Virus record (IMG/VR): IMGVR_UViG_3300020477_001932
Coordinates: 1-64,000 of that record
From: a virus
Reading direction: 5' to 3' (one strand)
DNA: 64,000 nt
The notes beneath the pieces are model-generated. The model searched no databases. It was not told where the DNA came from and worked only from the letters and a program-made list of their open reading frames with translations. A program made the translations under genes and the position numbers. How positions within the stretch are numbered: position 1 is the first letter of the stretch; each line of letters opens with the position of its first letter. Shown piece after piece: positions 209-39,999 of the stretch.

Positions 209-955
209 ATGGCTAGTGTAACATCAAGGCAAGGACTTATAGACTATTGTTTGCGTAGATTGGGACAGCCTGTAATTGAAATCAATGTTGACGAAGATCA
301 GCTAGACGAAAGAGTAGATGATGCTTTAGAGTTTTTTCAAGAATACCATTTTGACGGTGTTGAAAAAGTTTTTACTAAGCATATAATAACTCAAACTGAT
401 ATTGATAATGAGTATATTTCTACTGATAACTCTATTATTAGTGTAGTTAGAGTATTGCCTATTCCTAGTTTTGATTCATTTCAAGGTGGTTTCTTTAATG
501 AAGAATATCAGTTAAGACTAAATGATTTAAACAATTTTTCTGGCTCATCTCTTGTTCAATGGAGTATGACATTAAGCAATTTTTCTTTAATTGAAGAGCT
601 GTTTTCTATTGCTCCAATTATGATGTTTAATAGAAAACAAGATAGAGTTTATTTAGAAACTAATTGGGTAGAAAAATTTAAAGTAGATGATATTCTAATA
701 GTAGAAGCTTATAAAATTCTTGATCCATCAACATTCCCACAAGTCTGGAATGATATGTTTTTAAAGAGATATGCTACTTCTTTAATAAAGCGTCAATGGG
801 GCGAGAATCTTAAAAAATATCAAGGCGTCGTTTTGCCAGGTGGTATTACACTTGATGGTAAAACTATTTATGATGAAGCAATCGAAGAAATAAGACAGAT
901 TGAAGAAGAAGTAAGTCTTAAATATGAACTTCCAGCAGACGGATATGTAGGTTAA
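209..955 (+). CDS. gp13: T4-like neck protein gp13
   Basis: YCLRRLGQPVIEINVDEDQLDER, WGENLKKY, LPGGITLDG motifs; start moved to ATG 209 after AAGGA. Confidence 0.93.
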   Translation: MASVTSRQGLIDYCLRRLGQPVIEINVDEDQLDERVDDALEFFQEYHFDGVEKVFTKHIITQTDIDNEYISTDNSIISVVRVLPIPSFDSFQGGFFNEEYQLRLNDLNNFSGSSLVQWSMTLSNFSLIEELFSIAPIMMFNRKQDRVYLETNWVEKFKVDDILIVEAYKILDPSTFPQVWNDMFLKRYATSLIKRQWGENLKKYQGVVLPGGITLDGKTIYDEAIEEIRQIEEEVSLKYELPADGYVG

Positions 956-956
956 T

Positions 957-1850
957 ATGCCAGTTAATAATTACTTTAGAAATTTTAATTCTATGGTTCA
1001 ACAGGAATTAATCAATGATCTAACAAGAGAAGTAATAGAGATCAATGGTCTTGAAGTCTATTATGTTATTAGAGAAAATTCTAATCTTAAAGATACAATT
1101 TATAATGAAGAGCCAACAGCAAGATTTCTAAATGCTAGAAAAGTTGAAATGTATATAAACACGCCTGAAGGCTTTGAGGGTGCTGGGGATCTAGTTTCAA
1201 AATTTGGCCTTGATGTTGTAGATGAATTAATTTTAATTGCAAATCGTGAAAGATTTGTTGATGAAGTTAAAATAGGAACACCTAGAGAAGGTGATTTAAT
1301 TTATCTTCCATTAGGTAAAGGTTTATTTGAAATTAAATTTGTTGAACACGAAAAACCATTTTATCAGTTAGGAAAAAATCACGTTTTTGAAATGACTTGT
1401 GAATTGTTTAGATATAATAATCAAATATTTGATGTTCCACAACAAGAAATGGGTGTAATGTTTAATAAGATTGAACGTGAAAATTCAATAACAAGAAAAT
1501 TTACAGTTGGAACACAATTTAATGCTAACGATCAATTTATAATTAGTGAAACAGTTAGAGGTGCAACATCTGGAGCTACTGGAAAAGTTGCTTCTCAAAG
1601 TGGAAATGTATTACATCTTTATCGTGTTTCAGGTTTGTTTCAAACTGGTGAAACTATTAATGGCCAGGGTCTTACACCACAGCCTCTACTTCATCCGCAA
1701 GTAGGAAGTGAACATACAAATACTATTATAGCTGAGGACGATCAAGTTATCGAATCATCTGAATATGATGATAATGAAATTCTTGAAACAGAGGGTGATA
1801 ACATATTAGACTTTAGTGAAATGGACCCATGGAGTGAAGGGGATCTTTAA
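957..1850 (+). CDS. gp14: T4-like neck protein gp14
   Basis: GFEGAGDLVSKFGL, PREGDLIYLP, LFEIKFVEHEKPFYQLGK; synteny. Confidence 0.93.
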   Translation: MPVNNYFRNFNSMVQQELINDLTREVIEINGLEVYYVIRENSNLKDTIYNEEPTARFLNARKVEMYINTPEGFEGAGDLVSKFGLDVVDELILIANRERFVDEVKIGTPREGDLIYLPLGKGLFEIKFVEHEKPFYQLGKNHVFEMTCELFRYNNQIFDVPQQEMGVMFNKIERENSITRKFTVGTQFNANDQFIISETVRGATSGATGKVASQSGNVLHLYRVSGLFQTGETINGQGLTPQPLLHPQVGSEHTNTIIAEDDQVIESSEYDDNEILETEGDNILDFSEMDPWSEGDL

Positions 1851-2896
1851 TGTTTGGTAAATATTTTTACAATAAAAATATCAGAAATATTGTTATCTTA
1901 TTTGGAACAATATTTAATGATATAGAAATAAGAAGAACTAGAGCTGGTACGGTTCAGAGTAGGTTGAAAGTACCTATTGCGTATGGCCCCGCACAAAAGT
2001 ATTTAACAAAATTGGATCAAGGCCCTATTCAAGTTGAAGCAACAGGAATGGATGCAGTAGAAACAAGAGATACAATGGGAATGGTATTACCTAGAATGTC
2101 TTTTGAAATAATGACAATGAATTATGATCCAACAAGAAAATTACAGACAACTAAGAAAATAAGAGAAGTAAAATTTCTCGGGCCAATAGATAGTATAACA
2201 GTTACAGATAATGGTGCTGGATATAATAATATACCAACAGTTGAAATAGAAGCACCAGCTGCTGGTGGAACACAGGCTACTGCAACTGCTACTCTTGGTA
2301 CGGGTTCAGATGCTGGTAAAGTTGTAAGTATTACACTTGTTGATGTAGGTGCTGGTTATACTTTTGTTCCTAATGTTACAATAAAACCAGTTGGTAATGA
2401 TAAACCATCAGATGCAAAAGCAACAGTTAATGTTGATGCAGATACCACAACATTAAATACAGCTTATACACCAGTTCCATATAATTTTGAAATTGATCTT
2501 TCTATTATGGTTTTGAATAGTGATGATGGTTCACAAATACTTGAACAGATTTTACCATATTTTACACCAGAGTTTCAAGTAACAATGAACGAAATGAAAA
2601 CATTGGGTATTAAAAGAGATATACCTATTGTGTTTAATAGTATGTCAACAGAAGATGATTATGAAGGAGACTTTCTTACTAGAAGGTCTTTAGTTCATAC
2701 TTTATCTTTTACTGTTCAAGCATACTTATATGGCCCAACTAAAGATCAGGGTATTATCAAAGAAGTAGATGTAAATGCAACAACAGATGAAAATTTTATT
2801 GATAATGATGCTAATATTAATGTTGTTCCTAAAGACGCTACTGCTGATCCTGATGATAACCCAGGATTTACGATAACAATAGATGAGAATGTATGA
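1850..2896 (+). CDS. gp15: tail sheath stabilizer gp15 with inserted beta-rich domain
   Basis: FGTIFNDI, VPIAYGP, LPRMSFE, YDPTRK, PVPYN, QILEQILPYFTP. Confidence 0.92.
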   Translation: MFGKYFYNKNIRNIVILFGTIFNDIEIRRTRAGTVQSRLKVPIAYGPAQKYLTKLDQGPIQVEATGMDAVETRDTMGMVLPRMSFEIMTMNYDPTRKLQTTKKIREVKFLGPIDSITVTDNGAGYNNIPTVEIEAPAAGGTQATATATLGTGSDAGKVVSITLVDVGAGYTFVPNVTIKPVGNDKPSDAKATVNVDADTTTLNTAYTPVPYNFEIDLSIMVLNSDDGSQILEQILPYFTPEFQVTMNEMKTLGIKRDIPIVFNSMSTEDDYEGDFLTRRSLVHTLSFTVQAYLYGPTKDQGIIKEVDVNATTDENFIDNDANINVVPKDATADPDDNPGFTITIDENV

Positions 2897-28611: not shown

Positions 28612-29172
28612 ATGCCAAGAGAAATGTTGAAGTTGAGAAAAGGTGATTCGGCCATTATGATTAAAGCAGATGGTTCTATTCAAATGGCAGGGTTGAATGA
28701 TAGACCTTTGATAGATGAAAAGGGTGCAATTTCACCTTGTATTTTGTTTGCAGCTGCATGGGCAAAAAAAGATCAGAAGCTTTTAATGGATTTAGTAGAA
28801 AATTTTAAGACTTGTGTTAAAGAAGGATATTTCGGTCCTGAAGCGCAAAGTGATTATAAAGCAATGGAAGCAGCTGCAGCGTCAGCAACAACTACACAGG
28901 CTGCTTCTGGTACTGTAACAAAAGAAGCATGGAATAAACATAAAGCAGAAGAAGAACGTCTTAAAGCACTTGCTGCACAAGGACAGGATCCCCAAGTAAA
29001 ACGCCAGATGGATGCTCTTAAAGCTGGTGCAAGAAAAACTACAACAAAACCATTTGAAGGACATTTAATAAAAGATACAGCTTCTGGAGCTGTAACTGTA
29101 GGTACTGCAATTATTGAAGAACAACCTAAACCCTTAACAAGTGAAGAAGCTGTAACAAGGAGAGATTCGTAA
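28612..29172 (+). CDS. hypothetical protein (likely paralog of 38825-39622)
   Basis: KLRKGDSAIMIKADGSIQM motif; coupled to gp45. Confidence 0.7.
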   Translation: MPREMLKLRKGDSAIMIKADGSIQMAGLNDRPLIDEKGAISPCILFAAAWAKKDQKLLMDLVENFKTCVKEGYFGPEAQSDYKAMEAAAASATTTQAASGTVTKEAWNKHKAEEERLKALAAQGQDPQVKRQMDALKAGARKTTTKPFEGHLIKDTASGAVTVGTAIIEEQPKPLTSEEAVTRRDS

Positions 29173-29843
29173 TGAAAATAAGTAAAAGTACAATGGATGT
29201 ATTAAAAAATTATTCAGAGATTAATCAGTCTATTGTTATCAAAGAAGGTAATGAGATTAAAACAATTTCTGCATTGAAAAACATTCTTTCCAGAGCAGTT
29301 GTGAAAGAGAATTTTCCAAAAGATTTTGCAATTTATGATCTTCCAACTTTCATCGGCTTTCATTCTACTATGTCGGAGCCGGACTTTGAGTTTGGTGATG
29401 ATTCCATGACATTAAAAGATGTAAACGGTAAAGGCAAATACTTTTATGCAGAACCTTCATTAGTTGTTACTCCACCTGAAAAGGGTGTTACTATGCCTGA
29501 TTCAGATATTCGATTTGAATTAAAAAATGATGTTCTTGAAGATATAATCAAGAAAGCAAATGTTCTTAAGCTTGCAGATATTGGATTAAAGAGTTGTCCT
29601 AAATCTCAAGGCCTTTATCTATATGCTACTAATAAAAGTAATGATACTTCAAATGATTATTCTGTTAAAGTAGGTGATGGTGCTACGAAGAAATTTAACA
29701 TTATTTTCAAGAAAGATAATTTAAAGATTATCCCAGGAGATTATGATGTTACTATTGCAAATGGTATTTCTCATTTTAAAAATAAAGAGCTTGATTTGGA
29801 ATACTGGATTGCATTAGAAGCTAGTAGTGATTATGGAGAATAA
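29172..29843 (+). CDS. gp45: sliding clamp
   Basis: LKNYSEINQSI, FPKDFAIYDL, NLKIIPGDYDV, YWIALE. Confidence 0.94.
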   Translation: MKISKSTMDVLKNYSEINQSIVIKEGNEIKTISALKNILSRAVVKENFPKDFAIYDLPTFIGFHSTMSEPDFEFGDDSMTLKDVNGKGKYFYAEPSLVVTPPEKGVTMPDSDIRFELKNDVLEDIIKKANVLKLADIGLKSCPKSQGLYLYATNKSNDTSNDYSVKVGDGATKKFNIIFKKDNLKIIPGDYDVTIANGISHFKNKELDLEYWIALEASSDYGE

Positions 29844-30663: not shown

Positions 30664-31608
30664 GTGATGAAAGATAATATATTATGGGTAGAAAAGTATC
30701 GACCCGATATGATTGACGATTGTATTCTGCCTAAATCAACAAAAGATATTTTCCAGTCTATTGTTGATTCGGGGGAGTTGCCGAATCTCCTATTATTCGG
30801 CACATCGGGCGTCGGAAAGACTACGGTTGCAAAGGCGCTATGTAATCAACTAAAATGTGATTGGTTGATGATAAATGGCAGCGATGAAGGGCGTATGATA
30901 GATACGCTGAGAACTACTATAAGTAGTTATGCCTCAACCGTGAGTCTTTCCGGCGGTAAGAAAGTTATTATAATAGATGAAGCAGACTATATGAACAAGG
31001 ATTCTGTCCAACCAGCTATGCGTGGTTTGATAGAAGAATTTTCAAATAACTGTCGTTTTATATTTACTTGTAATTATAAAAATAGAATTATTCCAGCTTT
31101 ACATTCACGGTGTTCTGTTGTAGATTTTAGAATACCAAAAGAAGAAAAACCAGAGTTAGCACAAAAGTTTTCAGCAGTAGCATTAAGCATATTAGATGGT
31201 GAAGAAATAAAATATAAACCAGATATTATTGCACAACTTGTCGTCAAGTTTTTTCCAGATTTTAGAAGGGTTTTGAATGAGCTCCAGAAGCATTCAATCG
31301 GTGGAAATATTGATGCGAGTGTTTTGACCTCATCATCCAATGAAACATTTGATGAGCTGATGAATTATTTGAAGCATAAAGATTTTACTAAGATGAGGAA
31401 ATGGGTAGCAGAAAATATTGACAATGACCATGTGAGATTATACCGTCAAGTCTATGACTCCCTGTTTACAAAATTAGAAAAAAGTACAATACCTGGGGCT
31501 GTACTAACGATAGCCGATTATTCGTATAAGTCAGCTTTTGTTGCAGACCAGGAAGTTAATATGGTTGCGTGTTTAACTGAATTAATGATGAATTGTGAGT
31601 TTGTGTGA
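30664..31608 (+). CDS. gp44: clamp loader large subunit
   Basis: LWVEKYRP, GTSGVGKTT, IIDEAD, SRC, FPDFRR. Confidence 0.96.
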   Translation: MMKDNILWVEKYRPDMIDDCILPKSTKDIFQSIVDSGELPNLLLFGTSGVGKTTVAKALCNQLKCDWLMINGSDEGRMIDTLRTTISSYASTVSLSGGKKVIIIDEADYMNKDSVQPAMRGLIEEFSNNCRFIFTCNYKNRIIPALHSRCSVVDFRIPKEEKPELAQKFSAVALSILDGEEIKYKPDIIAQLVVKFFPDFRRVLNELQKHSIGGNIDASVLTSSSNETFDELMNYLKHKDFTKMRKWVAENIDNDHVRLYRQVYDSLFTKLEKSTIPGAVLTIADYSYKSAFVADQEVNMVACLTELMMNCEFV

Positions 31609-31621
31609 ATAAGGAGAATGA

Positions 31622-33715
31622 ATGAATAAAAATATAAATTTAGAACAACTGATAGCCAAGGCCATTACTAATGGATTAGCAGAACTACCACTAGAGATAC
31701 GCGACCGTATAACACCTGGATTTTTACATAATATGTATACTTGTCAAAATAAGGTTGATGTTTCATTTAAGGACATTGTAGCTACGCAAAATACAAATGG
31801 AAATAGCTCAGATACAAAGAAAGATACAAAGAAAGATACAAAGAAAAAGGAAAAAAAGGAAATCAGCGCAGCGCAAAGAAAAATTACCCAGGATGCTACA
31901 GCAAGAATAGCTAAAGAAAGAGCTAATTGTTCTAAATATTATGACCTGTTTTGGAAGAAGAAAAAAATAAAAAAATTATTTGTAAAAGATGATAGTAAGT
32001 TAAGAAAAAGTGAAGGATGGTCAAGTCTTTATGGAATTGATTTTAGGTATCAAAGAGAAACTGATTTTACTGATGAAGAACAAATGATGGCATCTAGTAT
32101 TGTTGGTAGTATATTGACAGGGACATTAGCTCTGCCCGAATTAATAGTTCGTGAATATTCTAAGGAATGGGAAACGGTCGAAAAGGATGTTAAAGAAAAT
32201 TTTAAATTATTGGATGGTGAAGTAATTGATGGCCAGTTTAAATATGCAAAAAGTATTTTTGGGTTTTTGAAAGGTCTGGTTAGATTAGAAGATAATATAG
32301 GTAAAGAACATCATTATGGTGATGTAAAACATCCCATTGGTGGAATGAATATAGATGAATTAGCTCAATATGATAAAGATAATGGAACAGCCTATGTAGA
32401 CAAATTTTTAGATTATGAAGTTCAATTATCTGTTTATTATGGTATTACTGGTGATTATGCAGCCTTGGTTTATTTAAGGACAAATACTAGTCGTATAATG
32501 AAGTGGTGGGATATACTTAAAGCACATAATCACTTTTTATGTGATTTAACAAAGAACGAAGTTGTTTTTGATCCTAATGAGCTTTCTTCTGATATTACTG
32601 AAATGCAGATGCCATGTGATTTCCTTAATACTCTAACAAAGATAAATGTTACAGAAACAGGTAAATTTTGTAAAAATTTTGAGTTAAGAATGTCTTATAT
32701 TAGAATTTGGATAGTTTCTTTCTATATTCAATATCATTTGGATATGGGAACAAAAATAGATTCTTTACCTAAATGGAGTGATAGTGATATTACAGATTGG
32801 TGGCAATCTTCTCCGATTCTACATGATGAAAATCTTGTAAATAATATTTATGACCATGTAAAAACAGCCTTTAGTTATGTTTCACATATTTTACTAACCG
32901 CAGATGAAAAAGATGTGAAAATATTTAAAGGAGAAAAAAAACAGGGTTGGGTAATTTCTTTGATTATGTCAATTCAATTCTTTTTGCATAAGAATAAAGA
33001 TACTGTTGGTAAACCAAACCTATGGGATGGTCAAGTTTTTTTGAAAAGCTGGCTTGATAGTGTTGATAAATTAACAGTAAAAAAAGATTCCACCGGTGCT
33101 ATGTTGCCGTTTTATTTTGAGCATGAAATAAAGGAATTTATTAAAACAAATGATTGGTCATTATCAGCTACCAAAAACGTAATATATGATAATCAATTTG
33201 TGGGAGCTTATTGGAAGAATGCTTTACAAGCACATTGTTCTGTATCACATACAAAAAAATCAGATGCTTTAGAAAAAGATACCGTAATAGGTATTCCTGG
33301 CCTTTATTGGCAGTTGAATCATTGTTTTATTAGACCAAATAAAGACTTTGATAAAGATAAACACAATCCAAAGGATAAATATGCAGATTGGGGAGTTGTT
33401 GTATTAGATGAAGTAAGAACACCACCTTTGTCTCAAAGACAAATTATTTTTAAGTTGCAAAATGGGTATTGTCCTTTTTCTGGTAACCAAATTGATTTAG
33501 AACAATGTAATGCACATGATATACCATATAGTGAGGGTGGTTCTTATATGCACACTAACTGTTATGGTTGTCTTGGTATTTATAATACTAGTTCTAAGAA
33601 AACATTTCCAGTTTTGTTTGAAGAAATACATGGAGAAGCCGGTGTTACTTTAGAAGAATATCGCAGAAGAATAAAAGATGGTGAAATTGTTTGGGGCATA
33701 ACAAAAAAAATATAA
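31622..33715 (+). CDS. DUF262 (ParB/GmrS-like) plus C-terminal HNH protein, GmrSD-like
   Basis: YQRE..SIVGSILTG..LPELIV..VIDGQFK..YLRTN; C-terminal QNGYCPFSG..AHDIPYSEGG..TNC..YN. Confidence 0.65.
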   Translation: MNKNINLEQLIAKAITNGLAELPLEIRDRITPGFLHNMYTCQNKVDVSFKDIVATQNTNGNSSDTKKDTKKDTKKKEKKEISAAQRKITQDATARIAKERANCSKYYDLFWKKKKIKKLFVKDDSKLRKSEGWSSLYGIDFRYQRETDFTDEEQMMASSIVGSILTGTLALPELIVREYSKEWETVEKDVKENFKLLDGEVIDGQFKYAKSIFGFLKGLVRLEDNIGKEHHYGDVKHPIGGMNIDELAQYDKDNGTAYVDKFLDYEVQLSVYYGITGDYAALVYLRTNTSRIMKWWDILKAHNHFLCDLTKNEVVFDPNELSSDITEMQMPCDFLNTLTKINVTETGKFCKNFELRMSYIRIWIVSFYIQYHLDMGTKIDSLPKWSDSDITDWWQSSPILHDENLVNNIYDHVKTAFSYVSHILLTADEKDVKIFKGEKKQGWVISLIMSIQFFLHKNKDTVGKPNLWDGQVFLKSWLDSVDKLTVKKDSTGAMLPFYFEHEIKEFIKTNDWSLSATKNVIYDNQFVGAYWKNALQAHCSVSHTKKSDALEKDTVIGIPGLYWQLNHCFIRPNKDFDKDKHNPKDKYADWGVVVLDEVRTPPLSQRQIIFKLQNGYCPFSGNQIDLEQCNAHDIPYSEGGSYMHTNCYGCLGIYNTSSKKTFPVLFEEIHGEAGVTLEEYRRRIKDGEIVWGITKKI
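31811..31846 (+). repeat. perfect in-frame 12-bp tandem repeat x3 (GATACAAAGAAA, DTKK)
   Basis: Read directly from the sequence. Confidence 0.9.
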
Positions 33716-33717
33716 TG

Positions 33718-33750
33718 TTCCTTGTATTATAAACTTTTTTATGGTACACT
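33718..33750 (+). promoter_or_regulatory. sigma70-type promoter, TTCC family (queE)
   Basis: TTCC-TTGTAT-N17-TACACT; ATG 6 nt downstream. Confidence 0.75.
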
Positions 33751-33756
33751 TATAAT

Positions 33757-34686
33757 ATGAATAAATTAAGATACAGCGAAATGTTTTATTCCCTCCAAGG
33801 AGAAGGAAGGTACGTTGGTGTGCCTTCCGTTTTCCTTCGGCTGTTTGGATGTAATTTTGAATGTCGTGGCTTCGGTCAAGATAGAGATAAATCCAAATGG
33901 TTACCTGAAGATCAAATGCCTCATAATACAGATTATCCAGATGTAAAATCTATCGTAGATTTACCAGTTCCTCAACTTGGTTGTGATAGCTCTTTTTCTT
34001 GGGGAAAGAAATGGGGCCACCTAGCCAATTATGAGGATATTGATACTATCGTTAAAAAAATGAATGAGTTTACAAATTGGTATGGACAAAAAGAAAGGAT
34101 GGAGGGGGACATATCAGCTGCACTTAAACAAGATGATGCTGTTCATTTAGTTATTACTGGAGGAGAGCCGTTGTTAAAAGGATTTCAGTCAGGTGTATTT
34201 GAATTAATGACACATCCAGATTTATTAACACGTTATGTTACCATTGAGACAAATGGTACGCAAATATTTTCTCCATATGATTATTTTGCAGGTCATAATT
34301 ATATGTTTCCAGATCATCATAGAAAGTTTGGTGTAAATAAAAATGCAGGTATAACATGGTCTGTTTCACCAAAGCTTTCTAATAGTGGTGAAAGTTGGAG
34401 TGAAGCAATTAGACCAGAAGCACTTGCATCATATAATGCTTGGCCTTATTCTTATTTGTATCTCAAGTTTGTTATTAGGGATGAATATGATTTGGTAGAA
34501 GTAGAACAAGCTATTCGTGAATATGATAAAGCTGGTGTTAATATATGTGCAGTTTATTTGATGCCTGAGGGTGCAGTAGATCATCAAATGGAAGAATTAA
34601 AAATAGCAAAGATTGCATTAAAACATGGATATAAGTATAGTCCTAGACTACATTTAAATCTTTTTGGAAATGAGTGGGGGACATAA
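33757..34686 (+). CDS. queE: 7-carboxy-7-deazaguanine synthase (radical SAM)
   Basis: SLQGEG, FLRLFGCNFEC..(insert)..GCDS, ITGGEP, IETNG, SVSPK, PRLH. Confidence 0.92.
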   Translation: MNKLRYSEMFYSLQGEGRYVGVPSVFLRLFGCNFECRGFGQDRDKSKWLPEDQMPHNTDYPDVKSIVDLPVPQLGCDSSFSWGKKWGHLANYEDIDTIVKKMNEFTNWYGQKERMEGDISAALKQDDAVHLVITGGEPLLKGFQSGVFELMTHPDLLTRYVTIETNGTQIFSPYDYFAGHNYMFPDHHRKFGVNKNAGITWSVSPKLSNSGESWSEAIRPEALASYNAWPYSYLYLKFVIRDEYDLVEVEQAIREYDKAGVNICAVYLMPEGAVDHQMEELKIAKIALKHGYKYSPRLHLNLFGNEWGT

Positions 34687-35144
34687 TGTCACAAGCATTA
34701 AAGAAAGGCAGAAGTGGACAAAGAGGTATTAAGAATGCTGATAGAGTAAATGATACTGAAATGTTTTGTTCTGAGTATAAAGATGAAAATGGAAAGCAGG
34801 TTCGTCTTGGAAAAATCAGGCTTGCACATGAAATCAATGATGGTTTAAAACATATTGCACATGATTTAAATACTACTAAAGCAGAACTAGTAAGAACATT
34901 ATTTGTTGATTTTATACAGGATTATAAAGAAGCTAAAGCTACTGGTGCTATACAAAAGTTTACACCAGCACAAACTATTGAAAGATATTTAACCAGTAGA
35001 TATGAGTTCTTCCAATTATTCAATGAACTTAAAAAACAAACAAAATATTTGGAGGATTCTAAATCACCAGAAGTTAAAATTTTATCAAGACAAATTAGTA
35101 TAATAGCAGAAATGTTAAACCTTACAAATAAGAATGTGATATGA
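34686..35144 (+). CDS. putative ribbon-helix-helix DNA-binding protein
   Basis: KIRLAHEINDGLKHIAHDLNTTKAELVRTLFVDFI resembles CopG/RHH. Confidence 0.5.
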   Translation: MSQALKKGRSGQRGIKNADRVNDTEMFCSEYKDENGKQVRLGKIRLAHEINDGLKHIAHDLNTTKAELVRTLFVDFIQDYKEAKATGAIQKFTPAQTIERYLTSRYEFFQLFNELKKQTKYLEDSKSPEVKILSRQISIIAEMLNLTNKNVI

Positions 35145-35608
35145 ATAAATATAATTATTATTATGACCAGTATTATAAAGATATAACAGAGATTGTTGAA
35201 AGACACGAAGCAACACCAAATTTGCACGTTGTCGGTGTTTATCGTGGTTCATTACCAATAGCTACTCATTTAAGCAATGCTCTTGAGTGTCCTATGAGTA
35301 TTATTAAATTTCAGTCGCGAGACGGTTCTGATGATAAAGCAGAATGGATGTTAAATTTAACAGATGATGAAAGCTTAAGGCCTGAAAAGTCTAAGCAGTT
35401 TTTTCCAACATTATTGGTTGTGGATGATGTTTATGATACTGGAAAAACTTTTAGGGCTATTAAAGAATTACCAGAGCTTAAACAAAATCCAGATTATCAT
35501 TGTATTGCATTGTTTGGTAATGAAAATAATGATGGTGTAACTTATATCCATGAGCAACTATATAGATGGATAGTGTATCCTTGGGAAAGAGTAGGAGGTG
35601 CTATGTGA
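35141..35608 (+). CDS. type I phosphoribosyltransferase (Gpt-like)
   Basis: VGVYRGS, PRPP motif LLVVDDVYDTGKT, WIVYPWE. Confidence 0.88.
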   Translation: MNKYNYYYDQYYKDITEIVERHEATPNLHVVGVYRGSLPIATHLSNALECPMSIIKFQSRDGSDDKAEWMLNLTDDESLRPEKSKQFFPTLLVVDDVYDTGKTFRAIKELPELKQNPDYHCIALFGNENNDGVTYIHEQLYRWIVYPWERVGGAM

Positions 35609-36048
35609 AATATGAGAGTACGAAAACGTATGGTAATGATAGAGGTTTGAGTTGTTGTTTTCGTCAATGGAAAGCAACTAGTCATTGTAAATATTTACAT
35701 GGTTATAGTTTAGGTTTTAGATTTACATTTGAAACAGATGAATTAGATGGTAGAAATTGGGTTTATGATTTTGGTAATTGTAAATGGATTAAAGTGTTTC
35801 TTGAACAAACATTTGACCATAAGCTTTTAATAGATAAAAATGATCCTGATATAGAACATATATATAAAATACATGATGAAAATATGGCACAAGTTCTTAC
35901 AATGGATGGTGTTGGTTGTGAGAAGTTTGCTGAGTATGTTTATAATTATGTTTTACGACAAGTTCAAGAAGAAACAGGAGGACGAGTTAATTTGAAAAGT
36001 GTTGAGTGTTTTGAACATGGTTCAAATAGTGCAATATATTATGGTTAG
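35605..36048 (+). CDS. queD: 6-carboxytetrahydropterin synthase
   Basis: SHCKYLHGY, NWVYDFG, FDHK, GCEKFA; GTG start after AGGAGG. Confidence 0.9.
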   Translation: MKYESTKTYGNDRGLSCCFRQWKATSHCKYLHGYSLGFRFTFETDELDGRNWVYDFGNCKWIKVFLEQTFDHKLLIDKNDPDIEHIYKIHDENMAQVLTMDGVGCEKFAEYVYNYVLRQVQEETGGRVNLKSVECFEHGSNSAIYYG

Positions 36049-36065
36049 TGAGAGGAGCTTATATA

Positions 36066-36734
36066 ATGAAAATTTCAGAAAAGATAAAAAATGCATTAGA
36101 CAAGGGTTACTTAGCTAATGATACAATATATGATGTTATTAATGATGAAGATAGAATAGAGTTAATAGAAGAAGTTAAAGAGGCATTTCAAGGTGTATTG
36201 GATGCTTTAGTTATAGATACAAAGAATGACCACAATACACAAGAGACAGCAAAACGTGTAGCAAAAATGTTTGTCAATGAAATATTCCGTGGCAGATATT
36301 ATCCCCCGCCTTGTGTTACTGCATTTCCAAATGCAAAGCAGTATGACCAGATTTATATGTCTGGCCCCATAACAATCAATTCAACGTGTGCGCACCATTT
36401 CCAAGCTATTGCTGGAAAAGCATATGTTGGAATCTTTCCGGGAAAGAAAGTTATTGGATTATCCAAGTTTAATCGTATGGTTGATTGGGTTGCATCCAGA
36501 CCACAAATTCAAGAAGAAATGACAGAACAAATAGCAGATATGATACAAGAAGAAACTGAAGCAAAGGGTGTAGCTGTTATTGTTAAAGCAGAACATTTTT
36601 GTATGACGGCAAGAGGTGTTAAAGAACATGAAAGTGATATGGTAACATCTGTTGTGCGTGGTATTTTTCGTGATGAACCAGCAACAAAAGCTGAGTTCTT
36701 TTCTTTGTTAAGTAATATGAAAGGGATGCAATAA
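36066..36734 (+). CDS. folE: GTP cyclohydrolase I
   Basis: STCAHH, GLSKFNR, QIQEEMT, HFCMTARGV. Confidence 0.95.
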   Translation: MKISEKIKNALDKGYLANDTIYDVINDEDRIELIEEVKEAFQGVLDALVIDTKNDHNTQETAKRVAKMFVNEIFRGRYYPPPCVTAFPNAKQYDQIYMSGPITINSTCAHHFQAIAGKAYVGIFPGKKVIGLSKFNRMVDWVASRPQIQEEMTEQIADMIQEETEAKGVAVIVKAEHFCMTARGVKEHESDMVTSVVRGIFRDEPATKAEFFSLLSNMKGMQ

Positions 36735-37516
36735 TGGTAAACATGGTAACTAGTGGTAAACAAGAAGCTACTGGTAAATCTGTTTTATTATATTCTGGTG
36801 GCATGGATAGTTTGATGTTTGACTATTTAATGAAGCCTGATGTATTATTGTATATTCCGACTGGTAGTGAATACGAAATGATAGAAAGCAGTAAAATACG
36901 TTTACTTGGTAAATATGGTTATTTGGATGAAGATAAATTAGTTGTTTTACCTCGTGTTTTAAATTTAAGTAAGTTTGAACGTGATGATGCAATCGTTCCA
37001 AATCGTAACGCACATTTAATGTTGTTAGCTTCTATGTATGGTGAAGATTTGATTCTTGGAAGTGTTCAAGGTGATAGATCATTCGATAAGGATCCTATTT
37101 TTTATCAGAAAATGACAGACTTGTTAAATCATATGTGGAAAGAACAGCATTGGACTGAGGAACGTGTTTTTAAAGTTAGCTCTCCATATAAAGATAAAAC
37201 AAAGACGGAGATTGTTAAAGAGTATCTGGAAAAGGGTGGTAGTGCAGACGCATTACTACTTTCATGGAGTTGTTATGATCCACAATCAAGATATTTGTTA
37301 GACCCCGAAAGGGCTTGTGGATGGTGTAAACCATGTTTTCGTAAATGGATTTCACTTCATAATAACAATATAAGTATTCCAGAAGATTATTATGCAAACA
37401 ATCCATGGGAAGCACCATGGCTTGAAAAGTTAATTCCTTCTGTACTTGAAAAGAATTATCGAGGAAAAGAAGATTATGATTGGTGTGATGCCTTAACAAG
37501 TAAAGGAGTTTTATGA
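36734..37516 (+). CDS. queC: 7-cyano-7-deazaguanine synthase (QueC-like)
   Basis: YSGGMDS, VPNRN, SWSCY, CGWCKPC. Confidence 0.88.
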   Translation: MVNMVTSGKQEATGKSVLLYSGGMDSLMFDYLMKPDVLLYIPTGSEYEMIESSKIRLLGKYGYLDEDKLVVLPRVLNLSKFERDDAIVPNRNAHLMLLASMYGEDLILGSVQGDRSFDKDPIFYQKMTDLLNHMWKEQHWTEERVFKVSSPYKDKTKTEIVKEYLEKGGSADALLLSWSCYDPQSRYLLDPERACGWCKPCFRKWISLHNNNISIPEDYYANNPWEAPWLEKLIPSVLEKNYRGKEDYDWCDALTSKGVL

Positions 37517-38763
37517 AAGACGCGATTTACATTCCAGCATATAGTGATGGTTTAATGAATTTACTGGAAAAAGATGATGCTGATGCAAGTGAAAAATATC
37601 AGTCAAGTTTTGATAAAAAGAAATCATTAAGAATATATAAGAAAGATAGTGATTCGTATTTTAAGAATTTCTTTATGTTAATCTCAGCTGGTACACAACA
37701 TAATAAAAAAGATTTTAGAAAAACTATTCAAGCAGAAGATGCAAAGATATTTGTTGATAGTGGAGGATACCAGTTAGCACATTCCACAGTTAATCATAAA
37801 AAGTACACAGATGATATAGCTTTGAAATGGTCTGAAGAAAATGGTGATATATTTCCAATTTTAGATAGGCCAACATTTACGCTTGGAATGATGAGAGATG
37901 GAAAACCAGTATCGCCATATAAAGATTATCAAGAATGTTTGGATTTGTCAGTAAATTCTGCAAAACATTATTCAGAAAATCGTACACGTTCAGATGCAAA
38001 AATCTTAAATGTTATACAGGGCCAAACGATACCACAAGTTAAGAAGTGGTATGATGAAATAAAGAAGTATGAGTTTGAGGGTTGGGCATATGGTGGTACA
38101 AGAGGCAATTTGGGTCGTATTGTTCCAGCAATATTGTTTTTAATTAATAACAAAGAATTTGATAGACCTAAGTGTGATTTATTTCATATATTTGGTGTAA
38201 CATCAAATGAAAGTATGATTTATTTTCAGTATCTTCAAATGTTACTAAATAAACATAATATTGATATGCAGATAACATATGATTCAACATACTGGAATCG
38301 TACTGTTGTTTTTGGTGGTTACTTTACAGAGGCTAGATATATTACTGGAACTGGTATGGCTTCTATGAATTGGCCTAATACAATTAGTTATGAAAATCTT
38401 TCAAAAGATTTTAAATTACCTTGTCATTGTCCTATATGTAAAGATTGCACAGATGTTTATTCTTTATTTAATCAATATAAGACAAATAAAGAGGGCAAAG
38501 AAGTGGTAGTTTTTAGAGATTTTAATATGACAATGGCATTTCATAATTTATATTTACAGTTAGAATATCTTGAAAATATTACAAGAATTTTAAAATCAGG
38601 CATGAAAGAGATTTATTTAGAGTTTTTTCCAAAGAAAATTTATGATAATTTAATCTTTTTAGAAGGAGTTTTTAATAATATGTCAAAAGATTGGGAAGGA
38701 GAGCTAAATAAACGATTTCTAAAGGCTGAGGATCTTAATACATTAGAGGGTTTTTTTGGATGA
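37513..38763 (+). CDS. TGT-family transglycosylase, probably DNA-acting DpdA-like
   Basis: VDSGGYQ, PILD, VIQG, GWAYGG, HIFG, YDS, CHCPIC..H zinc site; last gene of preQ0 run. Confidence 0.8.
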   Translation: MKDAIYIPAYSDGLMNLLEKDDADASEKYQSSFDKKKSLRIYKKDSDSYFKNFFMLISAGTQHNKKDFRKTIQAEDAKIFVDSGGYQLAHSTVNHKKYTDDIALKWSEENGDIFPILDRPTFTLGMMRDGKPVSPYKDYQECLDLSVNSAKHYSENRTRSDAKILNVIQGQTIPQVKKWYDEIKKYEFEGWAYGGTRGNLGRIVPAILFLINNKEFDRPKCDLFHIFGVTSNESMIYFQYLQMLLNKHNIDMQITYDSTYWNRTVVFGGYFTEARYITGTGMASMNWPNTISYENLSKDFKLPCHCPICKDCTDVYSLFNQYKTNKEGKEVVVFRDFNMTMAFHNLYLQLEYLENITRILKSGMKEIYLEFFPKKIYDNLIFLEGVFNNMSKDWEGELNKRFLKAEDLNTLEGFFG

Positions 38764-38796
38764 TATGATTAATTTTTTTCGATACCTTGTGAGAGT

Positions 38797-38804
38797 TATA
38801 AATA
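38797..38804 (+). promoter_or_regulatory. late promoter
   Basis: TATAAATA upstream of ATG 38825. Confidence 0.65.
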
Positions 38805-38824
38805 ATTATGTAAAGGGGGTAACA

Positions 38825-39622
38825 ATGATGGAAGAAGAAAACAAACCAAAACGACCTAGTGATTGGGCTAAAGAAGAAAAGGCTAAACAACCAGAAAAAA
38901 AACCATTAGAAGAACAAAAGTTTGATAAAAATGGTAAGCTTTTTGTTAAACTTACTATGGATGATAGTGCATTGGTAGTTCGTGCTGACGGTTCTGTTGA
39001 GTTAATTAGCCATGACTTAGAAAACTCAGATGATGGTTATGTTGGTGATGTTGAAGATTTAAATAAAACTTTTTCTTTGGTGTTAGCATTAGCTTCTGCA
39101 TTAGAGAATGAAGATTTGTATAATCGTATATTCCATAACCTTAATATGACATTGATGAAAAAATGGGATAATATGCCTGATGATATTAAACAACAAATTG
39201 TAAAAAAGAGAAATAAAATTGATAACAGTCGAAATTCTCAAGAAGAGCTAGAAAAGAAGAAACGTGTTGAGGAATTTCGTAAACGAATGAACAAATATAA
39301 AGAAACTTTCTTAGATGATTTGGATGCAGAAAAAGAAAGACTGAAACAAGATATGCGTGATGAAGAAGATTTCCATAAACGGTATGGTAGAGATTTTGGT
39401 GCTGAACAAGAATATCCAGATCACTTAATGCCAGAAGATATTGATCCTTTTATGAATGGCCCAGGTGGAGATATGGAATCCAGACCAAGAAAAAAGATAA
39501 AGAAAAAGAAAGTTTCTTTGGATAGTCTAAGAGGTGTTGATTGGGACCCATACCATGAAACATTAAAAACTAAAAAGGGAAAATGGCGTTTAGATTATCC
39601 CCCTGATGATGAGGAGGAATAA
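38825..39622 (+). CDS. hypothetical protein (likely paralog of 28612-29172)
   Basis: VKLTMDDSALVVRADGSVEL motif; coupled to gp62. Confidence 0.7.
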   Translation: MMEEENKPKRPSDWAKEEKAKQPEKKPLEEQKFDKNGKLFVKLTMDDSALVVRADGSVELISHDLENSDDGYVGDVEDLNKTFSLVLALASALENEDLYNRIFHNLNMTLMKKWDNMPDDIKQQIVKKRNKIDNSRNSQEELEKKKRVEEFRKRMNKYKETFLDDLDAEKERLKQDMRDEEDFHKRYGRDFGAEQEYPDHLMPEDIDPFMNGPGGDMESRPRKKIKKKKVSLDSLRGVDWDPYHETLKTKKGKWRLDYPPDDEEE

Positions 39623-39999
39623 TGAATCCGTTTGAGTATGCTAATGAGTTGATAACAAAAGATAAGTATGATGAAGAAGTACCAGATAGAAAAGATTATA
39701 AACCATTTCTGATTAATCGTACTTTATCATATCATAATGATTTAATACATTATGTCAATTATTTGAATCAATATCCAGATGTAAATGATAAACTGCATTA
39801 TGATTTTCTTAATTTGTCCATAGCAAAGAAAAAGAGACCTAAGAAATGGTGGGTCAAGGGCAAGAAGTATGAGAACATGGAAGTTATAAAAGAGTATTAT
39901 AAGTACAGTACAGATAAGGCAATTACAGCCTTGTCAGTTTTATCTGATAAAGATATTAAAAACATCAAAAATAAGCTCTTCAAGGGCGGAGGAAAGTAA
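39622..39999 (+). CDS. gp62: clamp loader small subunit
   Basis: MNPFEY, YKPFLINRTLSY, YDFL, IKEYYKYSTDKA. Confidence 0.9.
   Translation: MNPFEYANELITKDKYDEEVPDRKDYKPFLINRTLSYHNDLIHYVNYLNQYPDVNDKLHYDFLNLSIAKKKRPKKWWVKGKKYENMEVIKEYYKYSTDKAITALSVLSDKDIKNIKNKLFKGGGK

Follow-up and report, generated by a model that had tools for sequence, protein, structure and literature searches.

A very divergent DUF262-like/HNH protein encoded in a swappable cassette beside the 7-deazaguanine island of a marine T4-like phage

The DUF262-nuclease proteins read DNA marks, and the bacterial GrwAB reads 7-deazaguanine DNA (PMC12137116). In SspE, DndI, and GmrSD, the ParB-like domain reads the mark and gates the nuclease (PMC11662687, PMC12137116, PMC13251355), and in SspE and DndI the host's own mark directs nicking to unmarked DNA (PMC11662687, PMC13251355). 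The DUF262-HNH architecture is known in bacteria and in T4-like cyanophages, the phage versions being uncharacterised (PMC12284385, PMC12373910). For instance, a study of sponge-associated cyanophages described an 'HNH Cas9-type' family (Sf-FS3 gp32, S-SSM7) that combines DUF262, assigned by HHpred, with PF13395 (PMC12284385). In our study, the protein P0001 was analyzed, which is encoded by an open reading frame (ORF) of 697 amino acids (aa), uninterrupted by stops, on the plus strand at 31622-33715 of the window. The window is the stretch of positions 1-64,000 of the 74-kb IMG/VR viral contig IMGVR_UViG_3300020477_001932. P0001 is composed of a DUF262-like domain, a helical linker, and an HNH nuclease domain, and it is a new, very divergent, phage-specific variant of the DUF262-HNH class. 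It was counted as a new variant because it is invisible to the annotation libraries, is longer than its relatives, has both catalytic motifs altered, and borders a phage 7-deazaguanine island. Tentatively, P0001 is taken for an accessory conflict nuclease that would act on non-self DNA while deazaguanine spared the phage itself, in the manner of restriction-modification (R-M).

The HNH (beta-beta-alpha-metal) domain covered residues ~596-662 (33407-33607) and contained C617, H632 (33515-33517), D633, G639, G640, N646 (33557-33559), and N655 (33584-33586). When the profile of the four-member P0001 family was searched against the PDB sequences (E ≤ 10), there were two matches, both of them HNH nucleases with the catalytic H, N, and N in register. 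A second profile search of the PDB sequences likewise matched HNH chains only. The family member P0005 matched phrog_1035 'endonuclease VII' with the same motif (E 3e-6). In BLASTP, P0001 matched the 495-aa 'HNH Cas9-type' protein of Synechococcus phage Sf-FS3 over the HNH region (E 7e-5). The family of the latter, an HNH_4 family, comprised 22 cyanophage sequences, most of which carried PF13395/PF01844. The hhalign comparison of the two families gave a probability of 95% (E 3e-8), and that of their C-terminal parts alone gave 97.5% (E 8e-12). In addition, a hidden Markov model (HMM) of the P0001 C-terminal part matched the Sf-FS3 family, with E values of 4e-11 to 7e-7 for the 14 best rows and no reversed or shuffled decoy among the matches listed. 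P0001 itself did not match the Pfam HNH models.

The AlphaFold2 (AF2) model built with a 24-sequence alignment was confident solely over residues 600-688, which are residues 481-569 of the model, with a predicted local distance difference test (pLDDT) score of 64-92. This modelled part resembled the HNH domains of Cap5, Cas9, IscB, and McrA among the PDB folds (Z 4.8-7.1, the top 14 rows being all HNH), a match to be read with the caveat that the alignment used for folding included HNH-family sequences. Foldseek of the AF2 model against the PDB returned nothing at E ≤ 0.001. A preliminary description of this locus, made from the sequence alone, had proposed a C-terminal HNH with H, N, and N retained, and the hhalign, PDB sequence, and fold matches supported this. 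The same description had called the protein GmrSD-like. The DUF262-like plus HNH architecture stood, whereas the strict GmrSD assignment did not. The C-domain was a classical HNH, and no similarity to DUF1524 was seen when hhalign compared it with 31 full-length GmrSD-type proteins (score 12, probability 0.1%). Therefore, P0001 was grouped with the DUF262-HNH proteins.

The nature of the C-domain bears on a type IV-like role comparable to that of GmrSD and BrxU, in which P0001 would cut differently modified DNA and exclude competing phages from the infected cell. P0001 shares its DUF262-helical-nuclease layout with GmrSD, BrxU, and GrwA, enzymes directed against modified DNA (PMC12137116, PMC12373910), and a DUF262-like HNH family also occurs in other T4-like phages without a link to dpd genes. 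However, the DUF1524 domain and the arginine of the DGQQR motif are missing, a short lytic cycle would leave little time for exclusion, and no pointer to any particular competitor modification was seen. Such a role was thus regarded as improbable.

The DUF262/ParB-like domain was placed at residues ~139-300 (32036-32521), with Y143, Q144, and R145 at 32048-32056, DGQFK at 32228-32242, and YxxxN at 32471-32485. In hhalign against 31 canonical GmrSD-type DUF262 domains from Bacteroidota genomes, the P0001 N-domain reached a P of 0.024, which was above all 100 column shuffles but marginal. The N-part of the Sf-FS3 family, used as a positive control, failed the same test. This direct test was insensitive, because the Sf-FS3 family failed it despite its DUF262 assignment. 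The Sf-FS3 family matched the DUF262 model NsnA (E 4e-5), and the N-parts of the P0001 and Sf-FS3 families gave a marginal hhalign score of 20.9 against a shuffle maximum of 20.7. The reference for the N-domain test was P0037 and P0038, distant relatives of the Sf-FS3 family that carry PF03235 plus PF01844, and their N-domains matched the canonical DUF262 at 98.7% (E 3e-16). The P0001-family N-domain aligned with P0037/P0038 over 132 columns at 25% identity (hhalign, E 6.3e-4, score 31.4), and the QR, S.L..P, DGQ, and F/YxxxN blocks were in register in one alignment. The scores of 150 column shuffles were 13.7 ± 2.5 with a maximum of 22.6, none of them reaching the real score (z ~7), and the middle and C-terminal parts of P0001 scored ~11 against the same target.

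Furthermore, when the three families were aligned with MAFFT without constraints, the Q, R, and E and the D and G fell into columns that were invariant or nearly so. The nearest neighbours of residues 125-330 in the ESM Atlas were DndB, ParB_N, DUF6551, and GmrSD_N clusters, at template modelling (TM) scores of 0.52-0.57, about half of the clusters having GmrSD_N, and this served as a lead only. Both AF2 models had a pLDDT below 50 across most of the N-domain, and with a plain HMM of this domain the true DUF262 proteins scored no higher than the reversed decoys. From these sequence comparisons, the N-domain was accepted as a putative divergent DUF262/ParB-like domain.

According to Machnicka 2015, as summarised in PMC12137116, the motifs of DUF262 are QR, DGQQR, and FxxxN. 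In P0001, Q144 and R145 were present, K207 stood at the position of the essential R, and Y284xxxN288 was found where FxxxN was expected. At the corresponding sites, the relative P0004 had NGKFR and FxxxxxN, and the Sf-FS3 family had DGGNR. The fifth position of the DGQ motif was basic (K or R) in all lineages. DndI and GrwA need the DGQQR arginine for nucleoside triphosphate (NTP) hydrolysis (PMC11662687, PMC12137116), and the altered NTPase motif pointed out in the preliminary description, DGQFK for DGQQR, was confirmed. The other motifs quoted there were likewise found: Y143-Q144-R145, S163/L165/G167, D203-G204-Q205-F206-K207, R286/N288 (within Y284xxxN288), H632, N646, and N655. All of these, together with G639-G640, were invariant between P0001 and the 50%-identical P0003. 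At the HNH centre, the residue before the catalytic His was A or G in the P0001 family, and the invariant D633 came after the His, whereas other HNH proteins have D-H. The metal binding of this HNH may be differently arranged.

Alterations of this kind would be expected if P0001 were catalytically dead or repurposed, for example to serve as a scaffold or DNA-binding decoy or to inhibit a host defence of the DUF262 type. The DGQFK motif, the A-H-D in place of D-H, and the zinc-binding cysteines of many HNH domains, which were not conserved within the P0001 family, were in agreement with this explanation. However, H632, D633, the GG pair, N646, and N655 were kept across three lineages at ~30% identity, which argues for a functioning active site, and the conserved basic residue of the DGQ motif also speaks against a dead protein. 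The probability of this explanation was considered low.

The N-terminal extension of P0001 (residues 1-138, 31622-32035) was Lys-rich and poorly conserved, with P0003 diverging here, and it contained three tandem 12-nucleotide (nt) repeats encoding TKKD units at 31810-31857. The middle region (residues ~301-595, 32522-33406) was helical in both AF2 models at low confidence; hhalign of this region stayed at noise level against every target tried, and no relatives were detectable outside the family. The C-terminal tail comprised residues 663-697 (33608-33712). Although the whole proteins were 50% identical, residues 664-697 of P0001 and P0003 differed at two positions, and the tail was conserved in part in P0005. 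This near-identity reflects either strong constraint on an interaction tail or a recent recombination tract that extends into the 3' end of the gene. With an alignment of 4 sequences, AF2 modelled the whole of P0001 at a pLDDT of 35. The ribosome-binding site AAGGAG was located at 31611-31616, 5 nt before the ATG. The GC content of the ORF (0.306, compared with 0.32-0.36 for the neighbours) was uninformative.

No match to P0001 was obtained in Pfam (E ≤ 1), PHROGs, PADLOC, and NCBIfam, and the same was true of P0003 and P0004 in the curated libraries. With the PF03235 and PF01844 models, the contig gave no match even when E values up to 10 were admitted. Among 1.84 billion cluster representatives searched exhaustively with phmmer, there were just three relatives. 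The sole close one was P0003 (677 aa, 50% identical); P0004 (260 aa) corresponded to residues 132-310 of P0001, and P0005 (364 aa) to residues 469-683. In the Tara coordinates, P0004 lay at 331..1113 and P0013, a member of the P0005 cluster, at 1076..2200, and the longest contig, common to both, was 3303 nt. P0004 and P0005 are probably adjacent, overlapping genes, as suggested by these coordinates and the common contig. In this lineage, the protein is probably split into a ParB-like part and a helical plus HNH part, as judged from the coordinates. When 50,697 phage records were searched with P0001 by tblastn, no match was found, and scans of IMG/VR, JGI metagenomes, and GTDB genomes yielded a 1.2-kb fragment of the P0003 contig as the sole relative.

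The left flank of P0001 is gp44, the clamp-loader large subunit (30664-31608, plus strand; Pfam AAA, DNA_pol3_delta2, and Gp44_lid), and directly downstream follows a QueE-like radical S-adenosylmethionine protein (33757-34686, plus strand). P0001 thus lies directly upstream of queE, queD, folE, queC, and dpdA, so that its position beside the modification genes was as first described. At least 13 runs of marine metagenomes, deriving from several studies of 2014-2024, contained the stretch, and Logan contigs of four runs were compared with 30664-34686 of the window. In run X5, a 2437-nt contig spanned 31570-34006 and included the whole ORF with zero differences from the window, at a depth equal to that of the flanks. 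In runs X10 and X14, the depth of the ORF was ~3-5 and 0-4, against 10-190 for gp44 and queE (gp44 16-190), the uncovered parts of the stretch in runs X14 and X16 not being evidence of absence. The contigs of other strains diverged exactly after 31608, the gp44 stop, and continued with unlike sequence, and other contigs began to match at 33718, three bases past the ORF stop. These match edges show that the variable unit is the ORF with its ribosome-binding site. The swappable cassette, as delimited by the match edges and the depth drop, therefore runs from 31609 to 33717 on the plus strand. No direct or inverted repeats were found flanking it.

The ORF stayed in frame in several metagenomes. 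The sole indel seen was an in-frame 12-nt deletion in the TKKD repeat (at 31810), found in two other runs and leaving one unit fewer. Identical contigs inside the ORF were present in an RNA library whose sample contained the DNA as well. This is a weak hint of transcription of P0001, DNA carry-over being possible.

The place between gp44 and queE was then compared among relatives. With the window DpdA, 9 related loci were obtained from IMG/VR, and with its gp44, 67; these loci were searched by tblastn with all window genes. In distant T4-like relatives, gp44 adjoined gp62. In 15 contigs of the window's clade without dpd genes, the order was gp44, a 156-aa ORF (u156), a phosphoribosyltransferase (PRT) gene, a 288-aa ORF (u288), and gp62. 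One of them, L171, had a gp44 98% identical to that of the window and yet no P0001. Eight contigs, the window included, showed both the dpd genes and the gp44|queE junction. The slot held P0001 in the window and was empty in L177 and L182 (140 and 45 nt). It held an HNH gene of 201-213 aa in L165/L008, L179, and L191. In L178 (10949-12443), a 192-aa ORF matching PADLOC REase_II (E 5e-8) was followed by an N6/N4 DNA methylase (PF01555, E 1e-44). In L180/L005, the occupant was a 684-aa ORF with an LIDGQNR motif (L005:4105-6159, equal to L180:11016-13067). This ORF had no match in Pfam, PHROGs, NCBIfam, PADLOC, and the PDB sequences; it was considered as a relative of P0001 and dropped, the DGQ motif being the sole similarity, and it may represent another ParB-like protein without relation to P0001.

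P0003 was found at the same site as P0001. The 1.2-kb fragment of its contig showed, in this order, a gp44 tail 91% identical to that of the window, a T5orf172/MUG113 gene, and P0003. The T5orf172/MUG113 (GIY-YIG-like) gene, at L002:146-907, overlapped the start of P0003 by 11 nt and was a second nuclease-type gene in the slot. A nuclease or modification gene thus occupied the slot in six of the eight dpd-bearing contigs and in none of the 15 dpd-less ones (Fisher's exact p ~3e-4), a value that is suggestive only, as the contigs are related, some perhaps from the same phage, and are not independent units. The gp44|queE slot is thus a hotspot at which genes for cutting or marking DNA are gathered.

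The distribution among relatives did not agree with a close tie between P0001 and dpdA. Co-occurrence with dpdA across phages, which the preliminary description had offered as a check, was not found: P0001 was seen in the window only, one of the eight contigs showing both island and slot. Since the dpd island is also found where the slot is empty or otherwise occupied, P0001 is dispensable for the existence of the island and is not part of 7-deazaguanine synthesis or insertion. This result also bears on a DpdB-like function. Bacterial DpdA requires the ParB-like ATPase DpdB (PMC10164549), and P0001, which has a ParB-like domain and is encoded in one string of genes with dpdA, might by analogy help the phage DpdA to insert the deazaguanine base. 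However, P0001 was missing from seven of the eight islands with a visible slot, among them complete ones with an empty slot or unrelated occupants, and no DndB/DpdB match was found in NCBIfam and Pfam. The likeness to DpdB pointed out earlier therefore did not hold as an obligatory partnership. In addition, the arginine of the NTPase motif is replaced, and the conserved HNH domain would have no role in such a helper. A helper function was considered highly improbable.

In contrast to a helper, a homing-type selfish nuclease would be expected to show sporadic distribution. P0001 would then cut a site near gp44|queE in co-infecting relatives that lack it, and repair would copy the cassette, perhaps with neighbouring island genes. 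The insertion would disrupt the site, so the phage itself would be immune, and deazaguanine would be uninvolved. The small HNH and GIY-YIG-like genes of the slot belong to families typical of free-standing homing endonucleases in T4-like phages. The sporadic presence of P0001 among close relatives, exemplified by L171, the exact cassette edges at the flanking genes, and the presence/absence polymorphism within populations were in agreement with homing. So were the ~200-aa HNH genes in the same slot in three lineages and the T5orf172/MUG113 gene upstream of P0003. Moreover, a target site within queE would alone account for a slot filled only in dpd-bearing phages. However, the 697 aa, the ParB-like domain, and the long helical linker resemble sensor-nucleases rather than homing enzymes of 200-300 aa. 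Flanking repeats or a target-site duplication were not found, a cleavage site could not be inferred from the sequence, and one slot occupant was a type II R-M pair, which is no homing enzyme. Homing, the main rival of the preferred reading, was held to be rather unlikely, although it explains the dpd-restricted filling of the slot about as well as the preferred reading does.

The preferred reading is that of an accessory conflict nuclease protected by the deazaguanine mark, and its steps can be put as follows. We infer that the HNH domain would nick or cut DNA, and that the DUF262-like domain would bind DNA and gate the nuclease, by analogy with SspE, DndI, and GmrSD. The targets would be non-self DNA, that is, the host chromosome or co-infecting relatives. 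The phage genome would be spared if the guanines at the relevant sites were replaced by the 7-deazaguanine base made by the neighbouring genes. Such a pairing would be R-M-like, with the dpd island as the 'M'. Weapons that distinguish self from non-self do occur in the slot in this clade, as the type II R-M pair of L178 shows, and the filling of the slot only in dpd-bearing relatives lends indirect support to non-self cutting with deazaguanine protection.

Several observations weigh against this proposal. P0001 is missing from most relatives with the same island, so coupling to deazaguanine is not obligatory, and in two dpd-bearing relatives (L177 and L182) the slot is empty. The small HNH and T5orf172 genes of the slot look like ordinary homing endonucleases, and the related cyanophage DUF262-HNH family is not beside dpd genes. 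Furthermore, A-H-D replaces the usual D-H, so that metal binding of the HNH is not assured, and with DGQFK the arginine needed by DndI and GrwA is missing, by which NTP-gated sensing may have been lost.

The surroundings of the cassette were those of a T4-like phage. The window had a GC content of ~0.32 and contained a T4-type replication module, and its DNA polymerase was ~50% identical to marine cyanomyophage polymerases. The gp45 clamp (29172-29843) was followed by a 2-oxoglutarate-Fe (2OG-Fe) oxygenase and gp44. On the right of the slot, the 7-deazaguanine island (33757-39622, plus strand) consisted of queE-like, u156, PRT, queD, folE, queC, dpdA, and u288, as identified with Pfam, PHROG, and NCBIfam. 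Within it, u156 and the PRT lay at 34674-35608, DpdA, with the tRNA-guanine transglycosylase (TGT) fold, at 37513-38763, and u288 at 38756-39622. After the island came gp62 (39622-39999), RegA, and gp43.

The dpd genes were arranged in two blocks, with queE before and queD-folE-queC-dpdA after the PRT gene. In the 15 contigs without queE, queD, folE, queC, and dpdA (L163, L164, L166-L176, L183, and L184), u156, the PRT gene, and u288 lay between gp44 and gp62. These three are therefore older residents of the gap, and the PRT is not tied to the deazaguanine pathway. L177, L179, and L191 had queE, queD, folE, and dpdA, but between folE and dpdA no QueC was found by tblastn, which suggests a different deazaguanine end product in these relatives. 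In L182 (13959-17902) and L178 (16331-17729), 1.4-3.9 kb of unmatched sequence was found where the window has queC and/or dpdA. In L010 (3207-7629), the module was rearranged: dpdA and a distant QueC-like ORF were followed by a gp45 copy, and this directly by u288 and gp62. In Sf-FS3 (PV340856.1), the gp44-gp62 gap contained a 376-aa 'hypothetical protein' matching Druantia DruA (L230:2261-3391; PF14236, E 2e-11). Thus, the gp44-gp62 gap gathers conflict genes in other T4-like phages too.

Phage 7-deazaguanine systems have been described as purely protective, with DpdA and the preQ0 pathway acting against host restriction. With a nuclease cassette joined to it, the island would gain an offensive arm, and, whether mark-aware or selfish, the cassette could explain the spread of such islands between T4-like phages. 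In its fullest form, the proposal would be a lytic marine phage with an R-M-like pair: 7-deazaguanine would serve as the self mark, and a fused DUF262-like/HNH reader-nuclease, as the swappable arm, would degrade unmarked host or rival DNA, to which the phage genome itself would be immune. This full form was considered decidedly doubtful; if true, the pair would be a phage-borne counterpart of SspE/DndI. The P0001 family was unseen by the annotation libraries and comprised three lineages among ~15 billion proteins, and it therefore widens the known sequence range of DUF262-HNH proteins. In addition, the nuclease and R-M cassettes that alternate in the slot gp44|queE form a natural series for side-by-side comparison.

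Compared with known systems, P0001 shares with DpdB the ParB-like fold class and the dpdA neighbourhood. It differs in having no family match and a fused nuclease, and the island does without it. Like the free-standing homing endonucleases of T4-like phages (Mob HNH and Seg GIY-YIG), P0001 lies between conserved replication genes, is sporadic, and has sharp edges. However, it is three times larger, and a ParB-like domain replaces their NUMOD/IENR-type DNA-binding modules. GmrSD, BrxU, and GrwA are similar in size (550-700 aa) and have their DUF262 domain, helical linker, and nuclease in the same order, whereas the C-domain of P0001 is not DUF1524. A GrwA-like attack on deazaguanine DNA would be suicidal in this phage.

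SspE and DndI, the phosphorothioate-sensing DUF262 plus His-Me nickases (PDB 7DRS and 9JFL), resemble P0001 in having a ParB-like domain followed by a His-Me/HNH domain and in being next to mark-writing genes. Unlike P0001, they are bacterial and possess a DUF1524-type nuclease and an intact DGQQR with the essential arginine, and neither was matched in two profile searches of the PDB sequences. Moreover, the nuclease gene is optional in the clade of P0001. The cyanophage 'HNH Cas9-type' family is different in length (~495 aa), in its DGGNR motif, in an HNH that is seen by Pfam, and in not being beside deazaguanine genes. It also belongs to marine T4-like phages, and it has in common with P0001 the homologous HNH region with the preceding segment and the 'QRE[ST]' and 'DG..[RK]' motifs. 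The DUF262-HNH proteins (PF03235 plus PF01844/PF14279) include P0037 and P0038 and are covered by the PADLOC models NsnA, PD-T4-2_A, and 'REase_II' (PDLC03418). P0001 is 240-290 aa longer than these, with a 138-aa Lys-rich N-extension and a ~300-aa helical linker, has DGQFK and A-H-D where they have DGQQR and D-H, and is missed by their HMMs. It has the same domain order as these proteins, with QR, DGQ, and F/YxxxN in register over the 132 aligned columns and a common C...H..P..GG...N...N HNH pattern.

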